Below are positions 1,518 to 50,750 of a stretch of DNA of 64,000 nt, piece after piece; the stretch's first letter is position 1, and each line of letters opens with the position of its first letter. A program made the position numbers and the translations under genes. The notes beneath the pieces are model-generated. The model was not told where the DNA came from, did no database searches, and saw only the letters and a list, made by a program, of their open reading frames with translations. The stretch is from assembly GCA_041649715.1 (NCBI GenBank), contig JBAZMP010000003.1, positions 100,894 through 164,893 of the forward strand, written 5' to 3'. This DNA comes from Patescibacteria group bacterium. GTDB lineage: Bacteria; Patescibacteriota; Patescibacteriia; JAXHNJ01.

Positions 1518-2150
1518 TTAATTCTCAACCATCTGCCCCACAACTACCATCCTCTTGCTCGTCGTTCCCGGCGGCCAGCAGGTCACCAGAGTAATCATCC
1601 CTTCGCCCTTATCAACCTTTACGATGGCTGTTTCATCCGCCGAAACGGTCCTTGGGCTTTCTGTCACTCGATAATTAATCCGTTCTTCATTGTTATTTAA
1701 TAACACTATTTCATCCCCTATTTTCAGCTCATCCAACCTTACCCAGACCAGGGCGTATTTCGCGGTCGGATGGAGAGAAGAGCTGTGGCCGAAAAATACG
1801 AGATTTTGTTTTTTTAAATCCGCGATGCCGTTCGGATACTGGACAATGCCGGAATCAAGCTGACTTTCCACCCAGTCGTTTTTGCTGCCCGCCAAATCAG
1901 CCGGGGCCAGGATAATCTCGGCGTCGGTGCCTATCGCGGGAATAAGAATCTTTTTCAAGCCGGCCGGGGAAATTTTATCTTCAACCACCGTGTTAGCATT
2001 CGGTAATTCAACCGTTTGGATCGTGGCAAAATAGCGGCCGTGAACAATCGGCCAGCCGAAAATAATAATCAGGCCCAAACAGACAAAACCAATGATTAAT
2101 ATTATTTTGGGGGCGAAAGACGGTTTACTTTTATTGTTAGCGGTAACCAT
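1518..2150 (-). CDS. Sortase family transpeptidase
   Basis: N-terminal membrane anchor, then the catalytic TLxTC motif region (..GEGMITLVTCWPPG..). Typical sortase length. Confidence 0.75.
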   Translation of the reverse strand: MVTANNKSKPSFAPKIILIIGFVCLGLIIIFGWPIVHGRYFATIQTVELPNANTVVEDKISPAGLKKILIPAIGTDAEIILAPADLAGSKNDWVESQLDSGIVQYPNGIADLKKQNLVFFGHSSSLHPTAKYALVWVRLDELKIGDEIVLLNNNEERINYRVTESPRTVSADETAIVKVDKGEGMITLVTCWPPGTTSKRMVVVGQMVEN

Positions 2151-2411
2151 TTATTTAAAAGATATGATTTGTAAGCCAAATTTTTCTATCTCTTCCCTGG
2201 GCCAAAATTTTACCTCTTTAGTCTTTAAGACGTAAGTCACCTTTTTCTCCAGGGTCCGGCCGGTGTATTCTTTTGTCTTCGGATCCCATTCGCGCAAGAA
2301 CAGAATATCACCCGGCTGGCAGGAAAAATCCGCCAGCCTTAATTCAAAAGACTTATCTCCTTCTAATATCTTCCGGAAAAATTCCGGCCACACTTTTTTT
2401 TCGATATTCAT
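2151..2411 (-). CDS. Small ASCH/PUA-like (DUF3850-like) protein
   Basis: 86-aa ORF abutting the sortase start. The family call is by recollection of DUF3850-type small proteins only. Confidence 0.4.
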   Translation of the reverse strand: MNIEKKVWPEFFRKILEGDKSFELRLADFSCQPGDILFLREWDPKTKEYTGRTLEKKVTYVLKTKEVKFWPREEIEKFGLQIISFK

Positions 2412-2427
2412 TCTATTAATGTTAATA

Positions 2428-2877
2428 TTAAAAATCTTCCTCGGATATCACCTTAATGCCGTTTCTTTTCAATAAGGCAGCGGTGACTCCGTCTCCTTTT
2501 ATTTTATGTCCGGAAAAAGTCCCGTCGTAAGTCAGGCCGCAGCCGCAGGAAGGGCTGCCCTGTTTTAAAATAGCCTCTCTAGCCCCCAACAACTTAGACA
2601 ACTTCAAAACTTCTTTGGCCCCAGCGATAAAATATTTGGTCACGTTTTTTCCGCTAAATTCTTTAACTTCCGCTCTTCCCTTTAAAACATCATCGCCCTC
2701 GCCTTTGATGATCTCGGCGTTTGGCCGAGGCGTGCTTTGACCGCCCAATTGCTCGGGGCAAACCGGCACTAATCTAACTTTTTTTGCTAAATCTAACACT
2801 TTCCGATTCGGTTTGCACTTCCCGTCATACCGGCAATTCAAACCGAGCAAACAGGCGCTGCAAAGAATTTTTTTCAT
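2428..2877 (-). CDS. DUF523 family protein (TudS-like [4Fe-4S] thiouracil desulfidase family)
   Basis: Begins MKKILCSACLLGLNCRYDGK..VCPEQLGG.. and has SPSCGCG. This is the conserved Cys/RYDG pattern of DUF523. Confidence 0.7.
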   Translation of the reverse strand: MKKILCSACLLGLNCRYDGKCKPNRKVLDLAKKVRLVPVCPEQLGGQSTPRPNAEIIKGEGDDVLKGRAEVKEFSGKNVTKYFIAGAKEVLKLSKLLGAREAILKQGSPSCGCGLTYDGTFSGHKIKGDGVTAALLKRNGIKVISEEDF

Positions 2878-2907
2878 AGGTATATTATATGTCTATTACT
2901 TATTGGC

Positions 2908-2936
2908 CGCCAATTGCCCGCAGGCGGCCTTGATAT
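2908..2936 (-). repeat. 29-bp duplicate of the rlmN 3' end (encodes ..IKAACGQLAANK*), direct repeat of 3620-3648
   Basis: 'cgccaattgcccgcaggcggccttgatat' occurs identically at 2908-2936 and 3620-3648. The second copy is the genuine C-terminus of rlmN (..KAACGQLATKDKL). Confidence 0.8.
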
Positions 2937-3076
2937 TGAGGCCTTTTATATTAGCAATATCCTCTTCTCTGATTTTGAATATATAAATAACCCGAGCGCT
3001 AACGCGAGTCATATTATCTAATAATTTATTTTTCAATTTTTTCTTTCAAAACTCGCTTAGATTTAATCTAACATCA

Positions 3077-3568
3077 TTATTCCAGAACTAATCGGCATTC
3101 CTTTTCCACGCATTTTGACACGACTCCCTTGCGGCAAGGAATAGGCTGTCTCGCCTCAAACTCGCTATCACTTTCACCCTGCAACGGTAACATTCCGCCA
3201 TCCATGCAAACACGCATACTGGATCTGACCCTGACATTCCAGCGGGCTAAATATTTTTTGTTAATAGACACATCATCATAGCATTCGATGCAATCATCGG
3301 TATCTACTTTGAGGCAATCGGCATCAGACTCACAGGCAAAATAATCAACAGACGAGCAACCCTCCCAATCTATCGGCCCGCCGTTATACATGGCTACGGC
3401 AGAAACTTCAGTTAAACATAATGGGTTGGCAATCTTGTTTTTTTCGGCTAGGTCATTTTTTAACCGGCTGTTTTCGTTAAATAAAACAATCGTAGAAATT
3501 AACAGCAAAATCTCGGCGATGATTATACCCGAAATTAGTATTCTATAAAATATTTTATTAAGATCCAT
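3077..3568 (-). CDS. Hypothetical membrane-anchored cysteine-rich protein (lies between the two rlmN-end repeats)
   Basis: 163-aa ORF with an N-terminal TM helix (ILISGIIIAEILLLISTIVLF) and a C-terminal domain with about 12 cysteines. The surrounding segment is AT-rich. Confidence 0.5.
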   Translation of the reverse strand: MDLNKIFYRILISGIIIAEILLLISTIVLFNENSRLKNDLAEKNKIANPLCLTEVSAVAMYNGGPIDWEGCSSVDYFACESDADCLKVDTDDCIECYDDVSINKKYLARWNVRVRSSMRVCMDGGMLPLQGESDSEFEARQPIPCRKGVVSKCVEKECRLVLE

Positions 3569-3601
3569 ATGTTTATTATATTAACATTATTTTGCCGAAA
3601 A

Positions 3602-4603
3602 TCATAATTTATCTTTCGTCGCCAATTGCCCGCAGGCGGCCTTGATATCGCGGCCGAAACGGAAGCGTTCGGTGACCGCCACGCCGGCCTTCAATAATAT
3701 TTCCTTGAAATTTTTCACCACCGGAATGGAAGAGGAAATAAAATTACCGGTCGGATTGTAATTGATCAAATTCAGGAAATAAAGCGGCCTTTTTAACAGC
3801 CCGGCCAGCTGCCTGGCCTCCTCCTCCGAATCATTGACGTCTTTGATCATCAGATATTCAAACATCACCCGCCGGTTGGTTTTTTTTATATATTCGTCAA
3901 CCGCGGACAAAACTTTTGCCAGGGGATATTTTTTATTGATGGGCATGATCTTGCTTCTTAACTCGTCATTCGGCGCATGCAGGGAAATCGCCAGATTCAC
4001 CTGCCGTTTTTCGGAGGCAAGCTTTTCTATCCCTTCGGTGATCCCGGCCGTGGAAATAGAAATATGCCTGGCTCCCAGATTAAAGCCGTCTTTATCATTC
4101 AATAATCTTATGGCGGCCATAACATTTTCATAATTTAAAAACGGCTCGCCCATACCCATAAATACAATATTAGTCACTTTTTCTTTTTTTGATTTTAGCC
4201 GTCTGGCAAAAAATAAGACCTGTTCCAGTATCTCGCTGACCGTTAAATTCCTTACCAAACCCATTTTTCCGGTGGCGCAAAAGGAGCAATCCAGGGGGCA
4301 GCCGACCTGGCAGGAAACGCAAACCGTCCGTCTGTCATCTTTGTGTTTCATTAACACGGTTTCAATTCTTTGGCCGTCAGAAAGGCAAAGCAAGGCCTTC
4401 TCGGTCCGGGCATCGACGGAGGCAAGAACTTCAGCATTAATTTCCAGCGGACAGGCTGTTTTTAACTTTTCCCTCAAAGCCAAAGGCAGACTGGACACTT
4501 TCGACCAATCTTGCGCCAAATCCCCTAAAACCGCCGACCAGGCCTGTTTCAGGCGGAATTTCGGCTCCGCGCCCAATGATTCTTCTAAGTTATCTAGATT
4601 CAT
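3602..4603 (-). CDS. rlmN: 23S rRNA (adenine2503-C2)-methyltransferase RlmN (radical SAM)
   Basis: Radical-SAM CxxxCxxC motif (CPLDCSFCATG). RlmN/Cfr-type overall arrangement. Confidence 0.85.
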   Translation of the reverse strand: MNLDNLEESLGAEPKFRLKQAWSAVLGDLAQDWSKVSSLPLALREKLKTACPLEINAEVLASVDARTEKALLCLSDGQRIETVLMKHKDDRRTVCVSCQVGCPLDCSFCATGKMGLVRNLTVSEILEQVLFFARRLKSKKEKVTNIVFMGMGEPFLNYENVMAAIRLLNDKDGFNLGARHISISTAGITEGIEKLASEKRQVNLAISLHAPNDELRSKIMPINKKYPLAKVLSAVDEYIKKTNRRVMFEYLMIKDVNDSEEEARQLAGLLKRPLYFLNLINYNPTGNFISSSIPVVKNFKEILLKAGVAVTERFRFGRDIKAACGQLATKDKL

Positions 4604-4725: not shown

Positions 4726-5439
4726 ATGGCCAGAGAACAAGGCTTATCTCATAACCCGGAAGAGGAAAAAATACTCTCGCTCCTCGCGGAGAAGAAAAAT
4801 TTAGACAATCGCGAAATCAGCAATCTCGCTTTTCAGGAAATCGTTCTGTCCAAATTAACCGGTCAATTCGGCCAGGAAATGCTGAAGGCCGGCATAAAAC
4901 CGGAATGTGTCGAACAAATCACGGTGAATATATTAGCGATTCAAGACAAAAAAATCGTCAGCCAGATGCTGGCGCTACCCGCTAAAATGCGCGAAAGTCG
5001 GTTTGTTACTTACGCCCAGAGCGGCAAAAGCGCCCAAGAGATCCTAAAGGATATGACGATCCTGATCGAACAGACTACAAACGCTTTGGGTGGCGCACCG
5101 GTACTTGGTTTTCACACCAGCCGGACAAAAATATCGCCGCATGAACGATACAATCCCGCGACAAGCACTAACGAAAGACTCTGGGTAGTTAGCGGGACGG
5201 AACATACCGATTACGCGGAAACTCCCCAGGCTTATGCCGCCCGGGACTATGAGCATCTCTATCGCAAAAAGGGAGATCCCGCCTACATTTACTTGGTCAG
5301 AGATAACGAAAAAAACGAAATTGACCCGACCACTGGCTGGTCGAGGGCTTCAAGCTTTGATGTAATCGCGGAGTTGAAAACGGCCGAAGTCGACCAGGAG
5401 ATAGAAAATATCGTTAGTCGCTTAAGAACCGTTGCCTAA
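4726..5439 (+). CDS. Hypothetical protein
   Basis: 237-aa ORF with a promoter-like element upstream. No recognisable motifs. Confidence 0.5.
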   Translation: MAREQGLSHNPEEEKILSLLAEKKNLDNREISNLAFQEIVLSKLTGQFGQEMLKAGIKPECVEQITVNILAIQDKKIVSQMLALPAKMRESRFVTYAQSGKSAQEILKDMTILIEQTTNALGGAPVLGFHTSRTKISPHERYNPATSTNERLWVVSGTEHTDYAETPQAYAARDYEHLYRKKGDPAYIYLVRDNEKNEIDPTTGWSRASSFDVIAELKTAEVDQEIENIVSRLRTVA

Positions 5440-5447
5440 AATAAAAA

Positions 5448-5483
5448 GGCATTAGCGACCCCCAAAGGAGAAAAGCTAATGCC
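5448..5483. terminator. Hairpin between convergent genes (9-bp stem ggcattagc/gctaatgcc)
   Basis: Inverted repeat 5448-5456 / 5475-5483 between the 3' ends of 4726..5439 (+) and 5476..5787 (-). There is no strong U-run. Confidence 0.35.
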
Positions 5484-5787
5484 TGTTCAACGTGCTGACG
5501 ATCATACTAGAGATGAGGGTGAAGAAGCCTTCGTCGGTTCCGTAACGGTTCCAGATCTCGTCAATCATATTCTCTAGCCCAGACCCATGGCCAAAGAGAT
5601 CTTTTATTGTCTTTTCTACGCCTTGAGTGTTCCCCTTTCCGATCTGAGTTCTTACATGCCACATCAACACTTGTAAAAGCAGGATCTCATTTACGTCAGG
5701 TGGCGGCCTCTTCGTTTCCGGATGATAATCATCTAGGGTCCACCCGGCTAAAAATTCAGCAAGACGGTGAATGCGGCTGACATTCAA
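5476..5787 (-). CDS. Hypothetical protein
   Basis: 103-aa ORF. No recognisable motifs. Confidence 0.4.
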   Translation of the reverse strand: MNVSRIHRLAEFLAGWTLDDYHPETKRPPPDVNEILLLQVLMWHVRTQIGKGNTQGVEKTIKDLFGHGSGLENMIDEIWNRYGTDEGFFTLISSMIVSTLNRH

Positions 5788-13536: not shown

Positions 13537-13623
13537 TGGTGGGCAGGGTAGGATTCGAACCTACGAAGCCCGGAGGGCAGCAGATTTACAGTCTGCCCCA
13601 TTTGACCACTTTGGTACCTGCCC
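13537..13623 (-). tRNA. tRNA-Tyr (anticodon GUA), class II long variable arm, CCA encoded
   Basis: GGGCAGG..GCAGA-CTGTAAA-TCTGC-TGCCCTCCGGGC..GTAGGTTCGAATCCTAC-CCTGCCCACCA. Confidence 0.8.
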
Positions 13624-13668
13624 ACCACTGGGGACGAAAAATATTTATTAATTAAACAACATTGGATT

Positions 13669-13697: not shown

Positions 13698-13722
13698 ACG
13701 TGATCCCTCCAGTGGTTCACGT

Positions 13723-13795
13723 CGAACCTACGAAGCCCGGAGGGCAGCAGATTTACAGTCTGCCCCATTTGACCACTTTGGTACCTGCCCACTAT
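13723..13795 (-). pseudogene. Partial duplicate of tRNA-Tyr (5' end through variable arm; T-arm and 3' acceptor strand replaced)
   Basis: 13723-13791 is identical to 13555-13623 of the intact tRNA-Tyr. The downstream part ('gtgatccctccagtggttcacgt') cannot form a T-arm or acceptor stem. Confidence 0.65.
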
Positions 13796-13889
13796 TGTTT
13801 TCAATAATTGTTTTTAAGTAACTTTTTGAATGCCTTCCCGCCTTTATTAGAATATATACATTATACATTACACATAATACATAATTGAT

Positions 13890-49129: not shown

Positions 49130-49576
49130 TCACTTCTTTTTCTTTTTTCCGCCCTCCTGGTCGGTTTTACCAATCCGACGCGAAACCTTGGCGCGTTCCA
49201 GGGGAAATCTGATCATCCGGGATCGCTTGGCTAAAGCCTGTAGCATCGCCTGCCGGATATACCAGACAGCATAGGAGATAAACTTGTAACCCCTGGTTTC
49301 GTCGAAGCGATGAGCGGCCTTAATGAGACCGACGTTCCCCTCATTGACCAGATCTGCCAAAGACAGTCCTTGATTGACATATTCCTTGGCCAAAGAAACC
49401 ACATAGCGCAGATTCGCCCGGACAAGCTGGTGCAGCGCTTTTTCGTCGCCTTTTCTGAACCTTTTCATCAGCTCTCTTTCCTGCTCCCGGGTCAGAAGAG
49501 GAATTTTATCGATTTCATCAAGATAACGATCAAGACTTACAGCCCCTTCTTCTTTGCCGTCATCATCAGAAAACAT
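49130..49576 (-). CDS. Truncated sigma-70 paralogue (regions 1.2-3.0 only; lacks region 4)
   Basis: Start set at [11 protein letters not shown] with RBS 'aaaggagtgg'. Contains ..[55 protein letters not shown].. and then ends in ..[13 protein letters not shown] with no helix-turn-helix for the -35 element. Confidence 0.55.
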
Positions 49577-49729
49577 AACCGCCACTCCTTTGCTAAAAGA
49601 TTCTATTATTTGAATAGTTAAAGAACTTCCTTCTAACTTAGGCTTAGTCCAAAAAGAGCAAAATGTCAAGAGATAGAAAAAAGCCCGTGGCGGTCAAAGA
49701 CCGACGGGCTTTTGTGAGTATCCCCTCCA

Positions 49730-50611
49730 TTAGCTCTCGACATGCCCCCTTAAATAGCGGGCGCGACTTTCATGACGAAGGCGCAATATGGCCTTCTCCT
49801 TGATTTGTCTGACCCGTTCGCGGGTCAACTTAAGCTCAGTGCCGATTTCCTCCAACGTGCAAGGCTTATCGTCTTCCAGACCGAAGTAACGAACAATAAT
49901 GAACCGTTCGCGCCGAGTCAGAGTATCAAGCGCCTTCTGCATGTCTTCGCTCAAAGCGGCCACATATACCTGTTCATCTGGCGGCTCCGCTTTGGGATCA
50001 GGGAGAGACTCGCCAAGAGTATCCTCGTTTTCGTAACCGATAGACGCATCAAGAGAAAGGTGACTGTTTGTTATCTGCATGGTGTCGCGGACTTCATCGG
50101 CCGGCAACTTCAGCTTTTTCGCAATTTCCTCCGCGCTAGGAGAACGCCCAAGCTCTTGATCGAGGTTTTGGGCTGCTTTGCCGATCCGATAGAGCGTACC
50201 CGCTCGATTCAAAGGCAGTCTGACGATACGTGATTGCTCGGCCAGCGCCTGGAGCATCGCTTGCCTTATCCACCAGACAGCATAGGAAATGAACTTGTAG
50301 CCGCGTTTCTCGTCGAAACGGTAAGCCGCCTTTATTATACCGAGGTTTCCCTCGTTAACAAGATCGGCCAACGGCAGACCCTGGTTGACGTACTGTTTCG
50401 CCACCAAGACGACGAATCGCAGATTGGCTTTCACTAAATCGTGAAGGGCCTCCTCATCTCCTTTCCGTATCCTTCGGGCTAAATCCTTCTCCTGCTCCCG
50501 CGTCAGGAGAGGAGTTTCGTTGATCTCTTTAAGATAGATGCTCAGGCTTTCTTCGGCCTGATGGCCAGGATTTACTTCCTGGTAATCTTCCCGGTCGTCT
50601 TCCGAGATCAT
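49730..50611 (-). CDS. RNA polymerase sigma-70 family factor (RpoD-like, regions 1.2-4)
   Basis: Start at MISEDDRED with RBS 'gggggagaaat'. Region 2 [34 protein letters not shown]. Region 4 ..LEEIGTELKLTRERVRQIKEKAILRLRH. Confidence 0.8.
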   Translation of the reverse strand: MISEDDREDYQEVNPGHQAEESLSIYLKEINETPLLTREQEKDLARRIRKGDEEALHDLVKANLRFVVLVAKQYVNQGLPLADLVNEGNLGIIKAAYRFDEKRGYKFISYAVWWIRQAMLQALAEQSRIVRLPLNRAGTLYRIGKAAQNLDQELGRSPSAEEIAKKLKLPADEVRDTMQITNSHLSLDASIGYENEDTLGESLPDPKAEPPDEQVYVAALSEDMQKALDTLTRRERFIIVRYFGLEDDKPCTLEEIGTELKLTRERVRQIKEKAILRLRHESRARYLRGHVES

Positions 50612-50750
50612 ATTTCTCCCCCCTTTCAACGGGGAAAAAGTGGGGTTTTTAAGGAATTCAAGGGACAAAGGTACCTTCTTTTATCAGCATAGCGCGAATA
50701 AAAAAGGTGTCAAATTGGTTATCGACCCAGGGCGTTATGTAAAATTTATA

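Follow-up and report, generated by a model that had tools for sequence, protein, structure and literature searches.

C-terminal displacement and orphan-module arrays are known from the Rhs, contact-dependent inhibition (CDI) and type VI secretion system (T6SS) effector-immunity loci, and homology-anchored (illegitimate) recombination is the mechanism suggested for them (Kirchberger et al. 2017, PMC5361080; on displacement and orphan arrays also Jackson et al. 2009, as cited in PMC5361080). In the Rhs, CdiA and T6SS arrays, a conserved 5' body carries a variable tail, incoming modules bring a tail together with one or more downstream genes, the old tail stays behind with a piece of the conserved part as a downstream orphan, the arrays differ between close relatives, and no dedicated recombinase is known. 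Here, we describe a locus that resembles them in each of these respects at the 3' end of rlmN, in a 64-kb stretch of DNA (the window) from a 235-kb contig of a Patescibacteria metagenome-assembled genome (MAG). Its anatomy is closest to that of these displacement arrays. Unlike them, however, it is anchored in the gene of a housekeeping RNA methyltransferase in a Patescibacteria MAG, the displaced part comprises only 3-10 functionless residues past the catalytic motif, with an orphan of about 40 nt, and the cargo consists of a Cys-rich membrane protein, NUDIX, DUF523 and HAD genes, with no toxin-immunity pair.

Integrase-mediated elements at gene 3' ends (e.g. tRNA-gene islands) are likewise flanked by direct repeats of the target end and leave the gene intact. 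The gene rlmN itself is used in one reported case from Streptomyces, where PMC9513070 describes an actinomycete integrative and conjugative element (AICE) inserted in rlmN with 11-nt direct repeats; the repeats found here are longer. In contrast to the multi-kb integrase-mediated elements, the present insert spans 0.7 kb with one cargo gene and holds neither integrase nor excisionase. With integron cassettes, the locus shares single-ORF (open reading frame) units of about 0.7 kb that are stacked at one site, the older ones farther from the anchor, but it has no IntI, attI or attC, each unit brings a -10 box of its own, and what marks the boundary is a motif within the coding sequence of rlmN. 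Small cargo modules without a recombinase of their own, bounded by short repeated sites, are also found as the Xer-dependent dif/pdif modules of Acinetobacter plasmids. Here too, small cargo units without a recombinase lie between short repeats, but the copies are direct repeats of coding sequence without the 11-6-11 dyad. In the limited library of literature searched, we found no description of such arrays at rlmN or in Patescibacteria.

A sequence-only reading of the window had pointed to a 29-bp direct repeat of the rlmN 3' end bracketing an AT-rich insertion with a Cys-rich membrane protein gene. All genes of the rlmN region lie on the minus strand, and the interval is composed as follows.

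3602 to 4603, minus strand: rlmN, 333 residues, radical S-adenosylmethionine (radical-SAM) 23S rRNA/tRNA A2503 methyltransferase, intact working gene (TIGR00048, PF04055)
3615 to 3655 (exact 29 bp at 3620-3648), minus strand: working repeat copy in the rlmN 3' end, encoding GRDIKAACGQLAT including the conserved C-terminal Cys motif
3569 to 3601, minus strand: 33-nt leader from the rlmN stop to the start of the Cys-rich gene, with a perfect TATAAT (3580-3575) 6 nt before the ATG
3077 to 3568, minus strand: Cys-rich membrane-protein gene, 163 residues, N-terminal membrane helix and 10-Cys domain
2944 to 3076, no strand: non-coding spacer from the Cys-rich stop to the orphan tail, about 29% GC, with an imperfect inverted repeat
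2896 to 2943, minus strand: orphan rlmN 3' end, 41 nt of rlmN homology (2903-2943), own tail ..AANK, stop codon at 2896-2898

The repeat was found as described. Within the window, the 29-mer CGCCAATTGCCCGCAGGCGGCCTTGATAT has two exact copies on one strand, at 2908-2936 and 3620-3648. Allowing as many as 3 mismatches brought up no further copy, and no other repeat of this type exists there; by chance, 0 matches were obtained in 100 dinucleotide shuffles. In register, the similarity of the copies extends over 41 nt (2903-2943 against 3615-3655, 37/41 identical, 90%), with a perfect center of 29 nt, 2 mismatches at each edge and unrelated flanks. The assignment of the second copy as the true rlmN C-terminus and of the first as an orphan tail also proved correct. 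More specifically, the rlmN product scores 347.1 bits against the RlmN equivalog model TIGR00048 (cut-off 290), matches PF04055 as well, contains both RlmN motifs, CPLDCSFC (radical-SAM CX3CX2C) and AACGQL, and ends in ..GRDIKAACGQLATKDKL (also written ..AACGQLATKDKL). The copy at 2908-2936, in turn, is held by a 46-residue ORF (2896..3036, minus strand) that ends in ..GLNIKAACGQLAANK* and has no match among protein families. A public gene call lists the orphan tail within a 38-residue hypothetical protein, which is probably a spurious annotation artefact. A 7-bp GC hairpin (GGCCGCC...GGCGGCC) is possible in the orphan tail.

Other parts of the sequence-only reading had to be revised. The interval between the copies (2937-3619) is indeed AT-rich, with 37% GC compared with 47% in the window, but most of this deficit stems from the two non-coding parts (29% and 18%), whereas the Cys-rich ORF has 41.5%. 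Since this is similar to the neighboring DUF3850 gene (40%), the composition of the interval is not diagnostic. The sequence cgagcgctaacgcgag had been named as an internal inverted repeat but does not form one. An imperfect inverted repeat does exist, pairing 2999-3009 with 3051-3060, and the fold of the region is unremarkable (z-score -1.6). The spacer at 2944..3076 has a counterpart in none of the loci fetched for comparison.

For this comparison, an RlmN search of the GTDB species representatives and JGI metagenomes gave only relatives of at most 67% identity without shared synteny, which were used as a negative control for orphan tails. A large protein collection contained RlmN relatives at 70-82% identity, and their contigs were fetched. 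In the RlmN tree, the window and contig L083 are sisters, while L085, L170 and L171 together with L084 form a neighboring group. L083 and the window share 82% identity in RlmN, 80% in TEN_NHL, 75% in the sortase and 64% in DUF523. The gene order in L083 is TEN_NHL, rlmN, 130 bp, DUF523, HAD and sortase; rlmN is followed by DUF523, and there is no Cys-rich gene at this position. The sequence-only reading had named a Cys-rich gene missing from no relative, or a repeat scattered over unrelated loci, as signs against an insertion; the gene is absent from L083, and the repeat is not dispersed in the window.

The relatives carry orphan tails of their own. Directly before the sortase gene of L083 lies GTCTGCGGCCAGTTGGCGACTAAGAGGAATTAA, an orphan tail encoding CGQLATKRN*. 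In L085, rlmN (..AIKNPA*) is followed by a terminator and then by a convergent NUDIX gene. L084 has the working tail ..ATKT*, about 165 bp of GC-rich hairpins, the orphan CTGCGGGCAATTAGCAATAAAAAACCCCGCCTAAGCGAGG, which is a copy of the L085 working tail and terminator, and then a NUDIX gene of the L085 type; the NUDIX gene is convergent to rlmN in L084, L085 and L171. The contig L001, from the same sample as L085, starts within the 5' leader of a NUDIX gene, followed by a 70-residue ORF, a hairpin remnant, the orphan tail CTGCGGTCAGTTGTCGACCAAAGACTAA (CGQLSTKD*), a leader, a Cys-rich gene and, directly thereafter, a sortase gene. Its leader is about 80% identical to window positions 3569-3601, its Cys-rich product is 51% identical, and at the DNA level the window and L001 are homologous between the Cys-rich stop codon and the tail core. 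In L001, however, the tail that heads this tail-leader-Cys-rich unit is an orphan, with a NUDIX module apparently lying between the unit and rlmN. A second lineage, not sister to the window, thus has its module boundary within the rlmN tail.

CTGCGGnCArTT, read on the rlmN strand, is common to all orphan tails, CTGCGGnCAnTT is invariant in all six working and orphan tails (alignment A4), and the tails of the clade differ from the window tail at 3-5 of 29 positions. Across 168 loci (1.22 Mb), the motif coding for CGQL yielded 175 occurrences on the rlmN strand against 6 on the opposite one, with true extra copies only in this clade. Each locus was also scanned for similarity to its own tail, and nothing comparable was found in about 150 other loci; about 155 more distant rlmN loci have no orphan tail. 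The orphan tails are thus recurrent but clade-specific. Furthermore, the modules behind rlmN differ between the relatives (the Cys-rich gene; NUDIX and a small ORF; DUF523 and HAD; a GC-rich double hairpin), and each is bounded by an old tail, so that the stretch from rlmN to the sortase gene behaves as a small accretion array. The end of rlmN has the look of a place where new genes have landed repeatedly, although no insertion enzyme was seen.

A GC-rich element, similar to a REPIN (a doublet of repetitive extragenic palindromes forming hairpins), was observed downstream of rlmN, often abutting an orphan tail (L083 4505-4570, L084 2565-2730, L171 1255-1395 and a remnant in L001 at 300-330). 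It consists of two mutually inverted hairpins, GGCGAGGC-TTCCAC-GCCTCGCC and GCCGAAGC-GTGGAA-GCTTCGGC. The window does not contain this double hairpin, and an Rfam search of the relatives' hairpin-bearing loci gave only sub-threshold chance matches; the element may be involved at the junctions of the relatives. In addition, contigs L169, L170, L174 and L085 end 40-210 bp past the rlmN stop, which would fit assembly breaks caused by strain-level variation at the junction, in contigs that are short anyway.

The orphan tail of the window is the junction scar of two modules, [rlmN...tail-leader-Cys-rich] and [tail'-DUF523-DUF3850]. The proposed insertion that regenerated the rlmN end thus holds to the extent that the orphan terminus marks a module junction, which probably arose by insertion, while its portrayal as an att-site duplication with a cargo cassette is not established. 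As to how the junction arose, we see slightly better than an even chance that the orphan copy is a recombination scar left by 3'-end (C-terminal) displacement of rlmN. In the starting state, rlmN would have ended in ..AACGQLAANK*, followed after 18 nt by DUF523, DUF3850 and the sortase gene, much like in the sister genome. The incoming module of 712 bp would have consisted of an rlmN-like 3' fragment (..GLNIKAACGQLATKDKL*), a leader with its own -10 box and the Cys-rich gene. A crossover within the stretch of about 29 bp that is identical in both tails, which corresponds to the codons of the invariant KAACGQLA, would have left rlmN with its own 5' part and the tail of the module, and would have moved the old tail, with its embedded promoter-like site and still joined to DUF523, 712 bp downstream. 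The module may have circularised and entered by one Campbell-type crossover, or an equivalent one-ended event may have taken place; the likeliest agent would be the general recombination of the host acting on a short conserved patch, not a recombinase encoded by the module. The repeat, the identities of the genes, the lack of the Cys-rich gene in the sister and the orphan tails of the relatives are observed, whereas the direction of this event, its circular intermediate and the enzyme behind it are inferred.

The anatomy of the repeat fits this reading, because a perfect 29-nt center with diverged edges and unrelated flanks is the residue expected from a crossover between similar, non-identical parental sites. 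That the Cys-rich module is the inserted part is favored since the sister L083 has a tail and then DUF523 without a Cys-rich gene, since the Cys-rich unit starts with an rlmN tail in two non-sister lineages, and since the module order in four loci fits insertion beside rlmN with the older tails distal. The conserved body, variable tail and orphan fragments with different tails that characterise C-terminal displacement arrays were found in the window, L083, L084 and L001; a toxin tail with an immunity gene was not found, the tails measuring 3-10 residues and the cargo having no toxin, immunity or defence match.

RlmN itself offers a setting for such an exchange. AACGQL is kept in nearly all of the 120 RlmN homologs listed (a few have GACGQL or AGCGQL), while what follows CGQL(A/V) is a short stretch that varies freely among them, so that a tail swap should be neutral. 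Strong conservation of the DNA ends, ahead of the variable region, with the KAACGQLA codons; this patch provides both homology for recombination and a constraint, by which only inserts that restore the motif survive. The main point of interest is that one junction type recurs with different cargo in related genomes. If the displacement reading is correct, small gene modules would be landing on a universally conserved, catalytically essential coding motif, in bacteria that have tiny genomes and are thought to exchange genes mainly via DNA uptake. C-terminal displacement, so far a matter of polymorphic toxin loci, would extend to a housekeeping gene and ordinary cargo, and orphan CTGCGGnCArTTG tails would be a simple signature for recently acquired genes in these genomes.

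Membership in described classes of mobile elements was examined as well. The absence of a recombinase, stated in the sequence-only reading, was borne out: the 712-bp unit contains only the Cys-rich ORF, and Pfam domains of integrases, resolvases and transposases were found in none of the 48 window ORFs tested (most of at least 150 residues) across the 64 kb. Compared with an integrative element, the locus has a regenerated target gene and, on either side of the insert, direct repeats taken from the end of that gene; a tyrosine or serine recombinase gene by the att site was found neither in the unit nor among these ORFs. An integron cassette was rejected, as there is no integrase domain and the neighbors are rlmN and two orphan ORFs. 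The same holds for an attC site: GTTRRRY cores are absent by eye, and the unit is bounded within the rlmN tail instead of at a GTT. The only palindrome, CTAAGCGAGT/ACTCGCGTTAG (3051-3060 with 2999-3009), has flanking heptamers that do not fit RYYYAAC...GTTRRRY cores. A Xer/dif module was dismissed because the 29-bp sequence shows only a CAATTG palindrome instead of the dyad of the 28-bp site. No terminal inverted repeats pairing the ends of 2937-3619 were found, which, with a repeat of 29-41 bp (vs 2-15) whose copies run into different tails, speaks against a transposon or miniature inverted-repeat transposable element (MITE) with a target-site duplication. The template and variable repeats of a diversity-generating retroelement (DGR) and a CRISPR-like repeat duplication were rejected on anatomy.

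Several observations weigh against the displacement reading. The clade is represented by only about 10 short metagenome contigs. L083 is not a clean empty site, as it has its own 130-bp insert with a possible degenerate tail and a hairpin element. The view of L085 and L001 as one genome is inferred from the shared sample and the matching NUDIX ends and not from an overlap; an exact overlap joining them was sought and none was found. Neither a donor nor a circular form nor a polymorphic allele was seen, and host recombination over 29 bp is inefficient. That orphan tails are confined to one clade, with none in about 155 other loci, points to a possible clade-specific factor, e.g. a dedicated enzyme. 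Moreover, that the Cys-rich gene rather than the tail'-DUF523-DUF3850 block is the newcomer is not established, since in L001 the Cys-rich gene directly abuts the sortase gene, no tail intervening, and the DUF523 identity of the window to L083 reaches only 64%, compared with 75-82% for RlmN, TEN_NHL and the sortase, so that DUF523 could have been acquired separately. Both points suit the opposite polarity, which we consider rather unlikely. Here, rlmN (..ATKDKL*), Cys-rich gene and sortase would be the older order, and the orphan tail ..AANK* with DUF523 and DUF3850 would have come from a related donor with rlmN-DUF523 by homology-facilitated illegitimate recombination anchored at the sortase gene, the tail being the ragged donor end. 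Such a mechanism is documented in transformable bacteria (references cited in PMC5361080), and the rlmN-DUF523 and rlmN-DUF3850 adjacencies seen elsewhere would be possible donors. It would, however, need a 29/29 tail match between two genomes, so a very close donor or later gene conversion, and is less parsimonious, as the window and L083 are sisters that both have a tail and then DUF523. The similar tails of the window working copy (ATKDKL*), the L001 orphan (STKD*) and the L083 orphan before the sortase gene (ATKRN*) would also agree with it, but 'ATK' tails are common in RlmN homologs generally.

Alternatively, the CTGCGG stretch could be an attachment site for a recombinase whose gene lies at another place in the genome or on a helper element, with small circular modules bearing a matching site inserting by rlmN, newest nearest, as in integron arrays, tRNA-gene island accretion and Xer-dependent dif modules. 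Different modules bounded by one core in four loci, a clear similarity that begins at or just before CTGCGG in L001 and L084, the restriction to one clade, a module order consistent with insertion beside rlmN and the integrase-bearing element in Streptomyces rlmN with 11-nt direct repeats (PMC9513070) all speak for this view. We nevertheless hold it to be unlikely, because no recombinase gene was found in the unit or the ORFs tested, the module-side sequences upstream of the core have no clear common motif, the 29-bp core has no dif or core-site dyad except CAATTG and no attC-like site by eye, and viral contigs carry neither the site nor the Cys-rich gene. The rlmN similarity also reaches 5' of CTGCGG in the window and possibly in L083, so that the position of the breakpoint varies to some extent; that a recombinase-driven cassette has its att site here is not established. 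Quite improbable is the most far-reaching form of this idea, in which the RlmN catalytic Cys-Gly codons (CTGCGG and neighbors) would be the attachment site of a cassette system without a cis-encoded integrase, and promoter-bearing modules with replacement tails, captured by a trans-acting recombinase or an enzyme associated with the REPIN-like hairpins, would be stacked by arrival into an integron-like array in a housekeeping gene. Finally, there may have been no foreign insertion at all: the rlmN end could have undergone slippage or been duplicated locally in tandem and then diverged, or the repeat could be an assembly artefact. The genome does contain other partial gene duplicates (a tRNA-Tyr 5' part at 13722-13797 and a truncated sigma-70 gene at 49130..49669), but the 680 bp between the copies duplicate nothing nearby and their gene has homologs in other genomes, a second record (235,657 vs 235,383 bp) has an identical rlmN protein and mostly the same neighboring genes, and 29 bp are far below the assembler k-mer of 141, making this scarcely credible.

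The Cys-rich protein has 10 Cys, not the 12 first counted, and 8 of these are conserved in its family. Only one close homolog was found in 5.8 billion clusters and about 5 full-length relatives in 1.84 billion representatives, and the protein belongs to a very rare family with about six known members. These share the membrane anchor and the pattern GEPIDWEGG..YFxC..D.DC....C.C...INKKY.ERW.VR...C...C...C...C, with 8 invariant Cys. The protein has no Pfam match, no assignable fold and no toxin, immunity or defence match. Our best guess is a domain that is probably extracytoplasmic, disulfide- or metal-stabilised, on a membrane tether. The gene context of a more distant family member (L173) has no link to rlmN, and the viral contigs searched contained neither a relative of the Cys-rich protein nor a copy of the tail pattern.

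Beyond the orphan tail, the window continues with the following features.

2884 to 2913, minus strand: promoter-like site for DUF523, TTGGCG within the orphan tail, 18-nt spacer, TATAAT at 2884-2889, ATG 6 nt on, 10/12 matches
2428 to 2877, minus strand: DUF523 / 2-thiouracil desulfurase family gene (PF04463, E 6e-43), first gene past the orphan tail
2151 to 2411, minus strand: DUF3850/ASCH gene (PF12961)
1518 to 2150, minus strand: sortase gene (PF04203)

In the window, L083, L001 and L086 alike, the variable stretch ends distally at the sortase gene, which serves as its conserved anchor, and in the window large DUF4215/CLIPPER surface proteins follow past it. Upstream of rlmN lie two orphan ORFs, then a TEN_NHL protein and YfhO. 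The ATG of DUF523 (2877) is 18 nt past the stop codon of the orphan tail, and the tail may have been kept because of its promoter-like TTGGCG. The L083 orphan tail before the sortase gene has an alike geometry (TTGGCG-17 nt-TATAAT). That rlmN tails generally embed the -35 box of the next gene found no support, as good -10 boxes at 16-18 nt spacing past rlmN tails showed no enrichment across 153 rlmN loci; an embedded -35 box is plausible for the window DUF523 and the L083 sortase genes only. TATAAT boxes 6 nt before the ATG, with no Shine-Dalgarno sequence between, were observed for the Cys-rich gene (3575-3580), DUF523 (2884-2889) and the L083 sortase gene (about 5731-5736), which suggests leaderless or near-leaderless transcripts of these genes.

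In a Falkowbacteria locus (L048 5001-6294, RlmN 55% identical), a DUF3850 gene whose product is 60% identical to that of the window directly follows rlmN, which hints at an old rlmN-DUF3850/DUF523 linkage among genes that handle modified nucleosides. On the 5' side of rlmN, window positions 4726-5787 hold two ORFs without family match (237 residues, plus strand; 103 residues, minus strand), inserted downstream of the terminator hairpin of TEN_NHL and ahead of the -10 region of rlmN. Only about 65 bp separate the same two points in L083, so that the 5' side of rlmN is likewise a variable spot.

At the window start, positions 35-663 contain three copies of a 68-nt repeat (78-79% identical) within one gene, encoding the CGDG...C.D.N Cys-rich repeats (DUF4215 type) of the large surface protein adjoining the sortase. 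A 76-nt copy (13722-13797 against 13555-13630, 97% identical) of the 5' three-quarters of tRNA-Tyr (13537-13623, minus strand) lies about 100 nt upstream of the real gene; past GGTTCGA it enters a 52-nt insert containing a hairpin, it has no 3' acceptor strand, and it is not called by ARAGORN. A truncated sigma-70 paralog (49130-49669, 179 residues, regions 1.2 and 2 only) stands directly after a full-length sigma-70 gene (49730-50668, 312 residues), and the pair shares a 273-nt repeat of 70% identity (49191-49463 vs 50202-50474).

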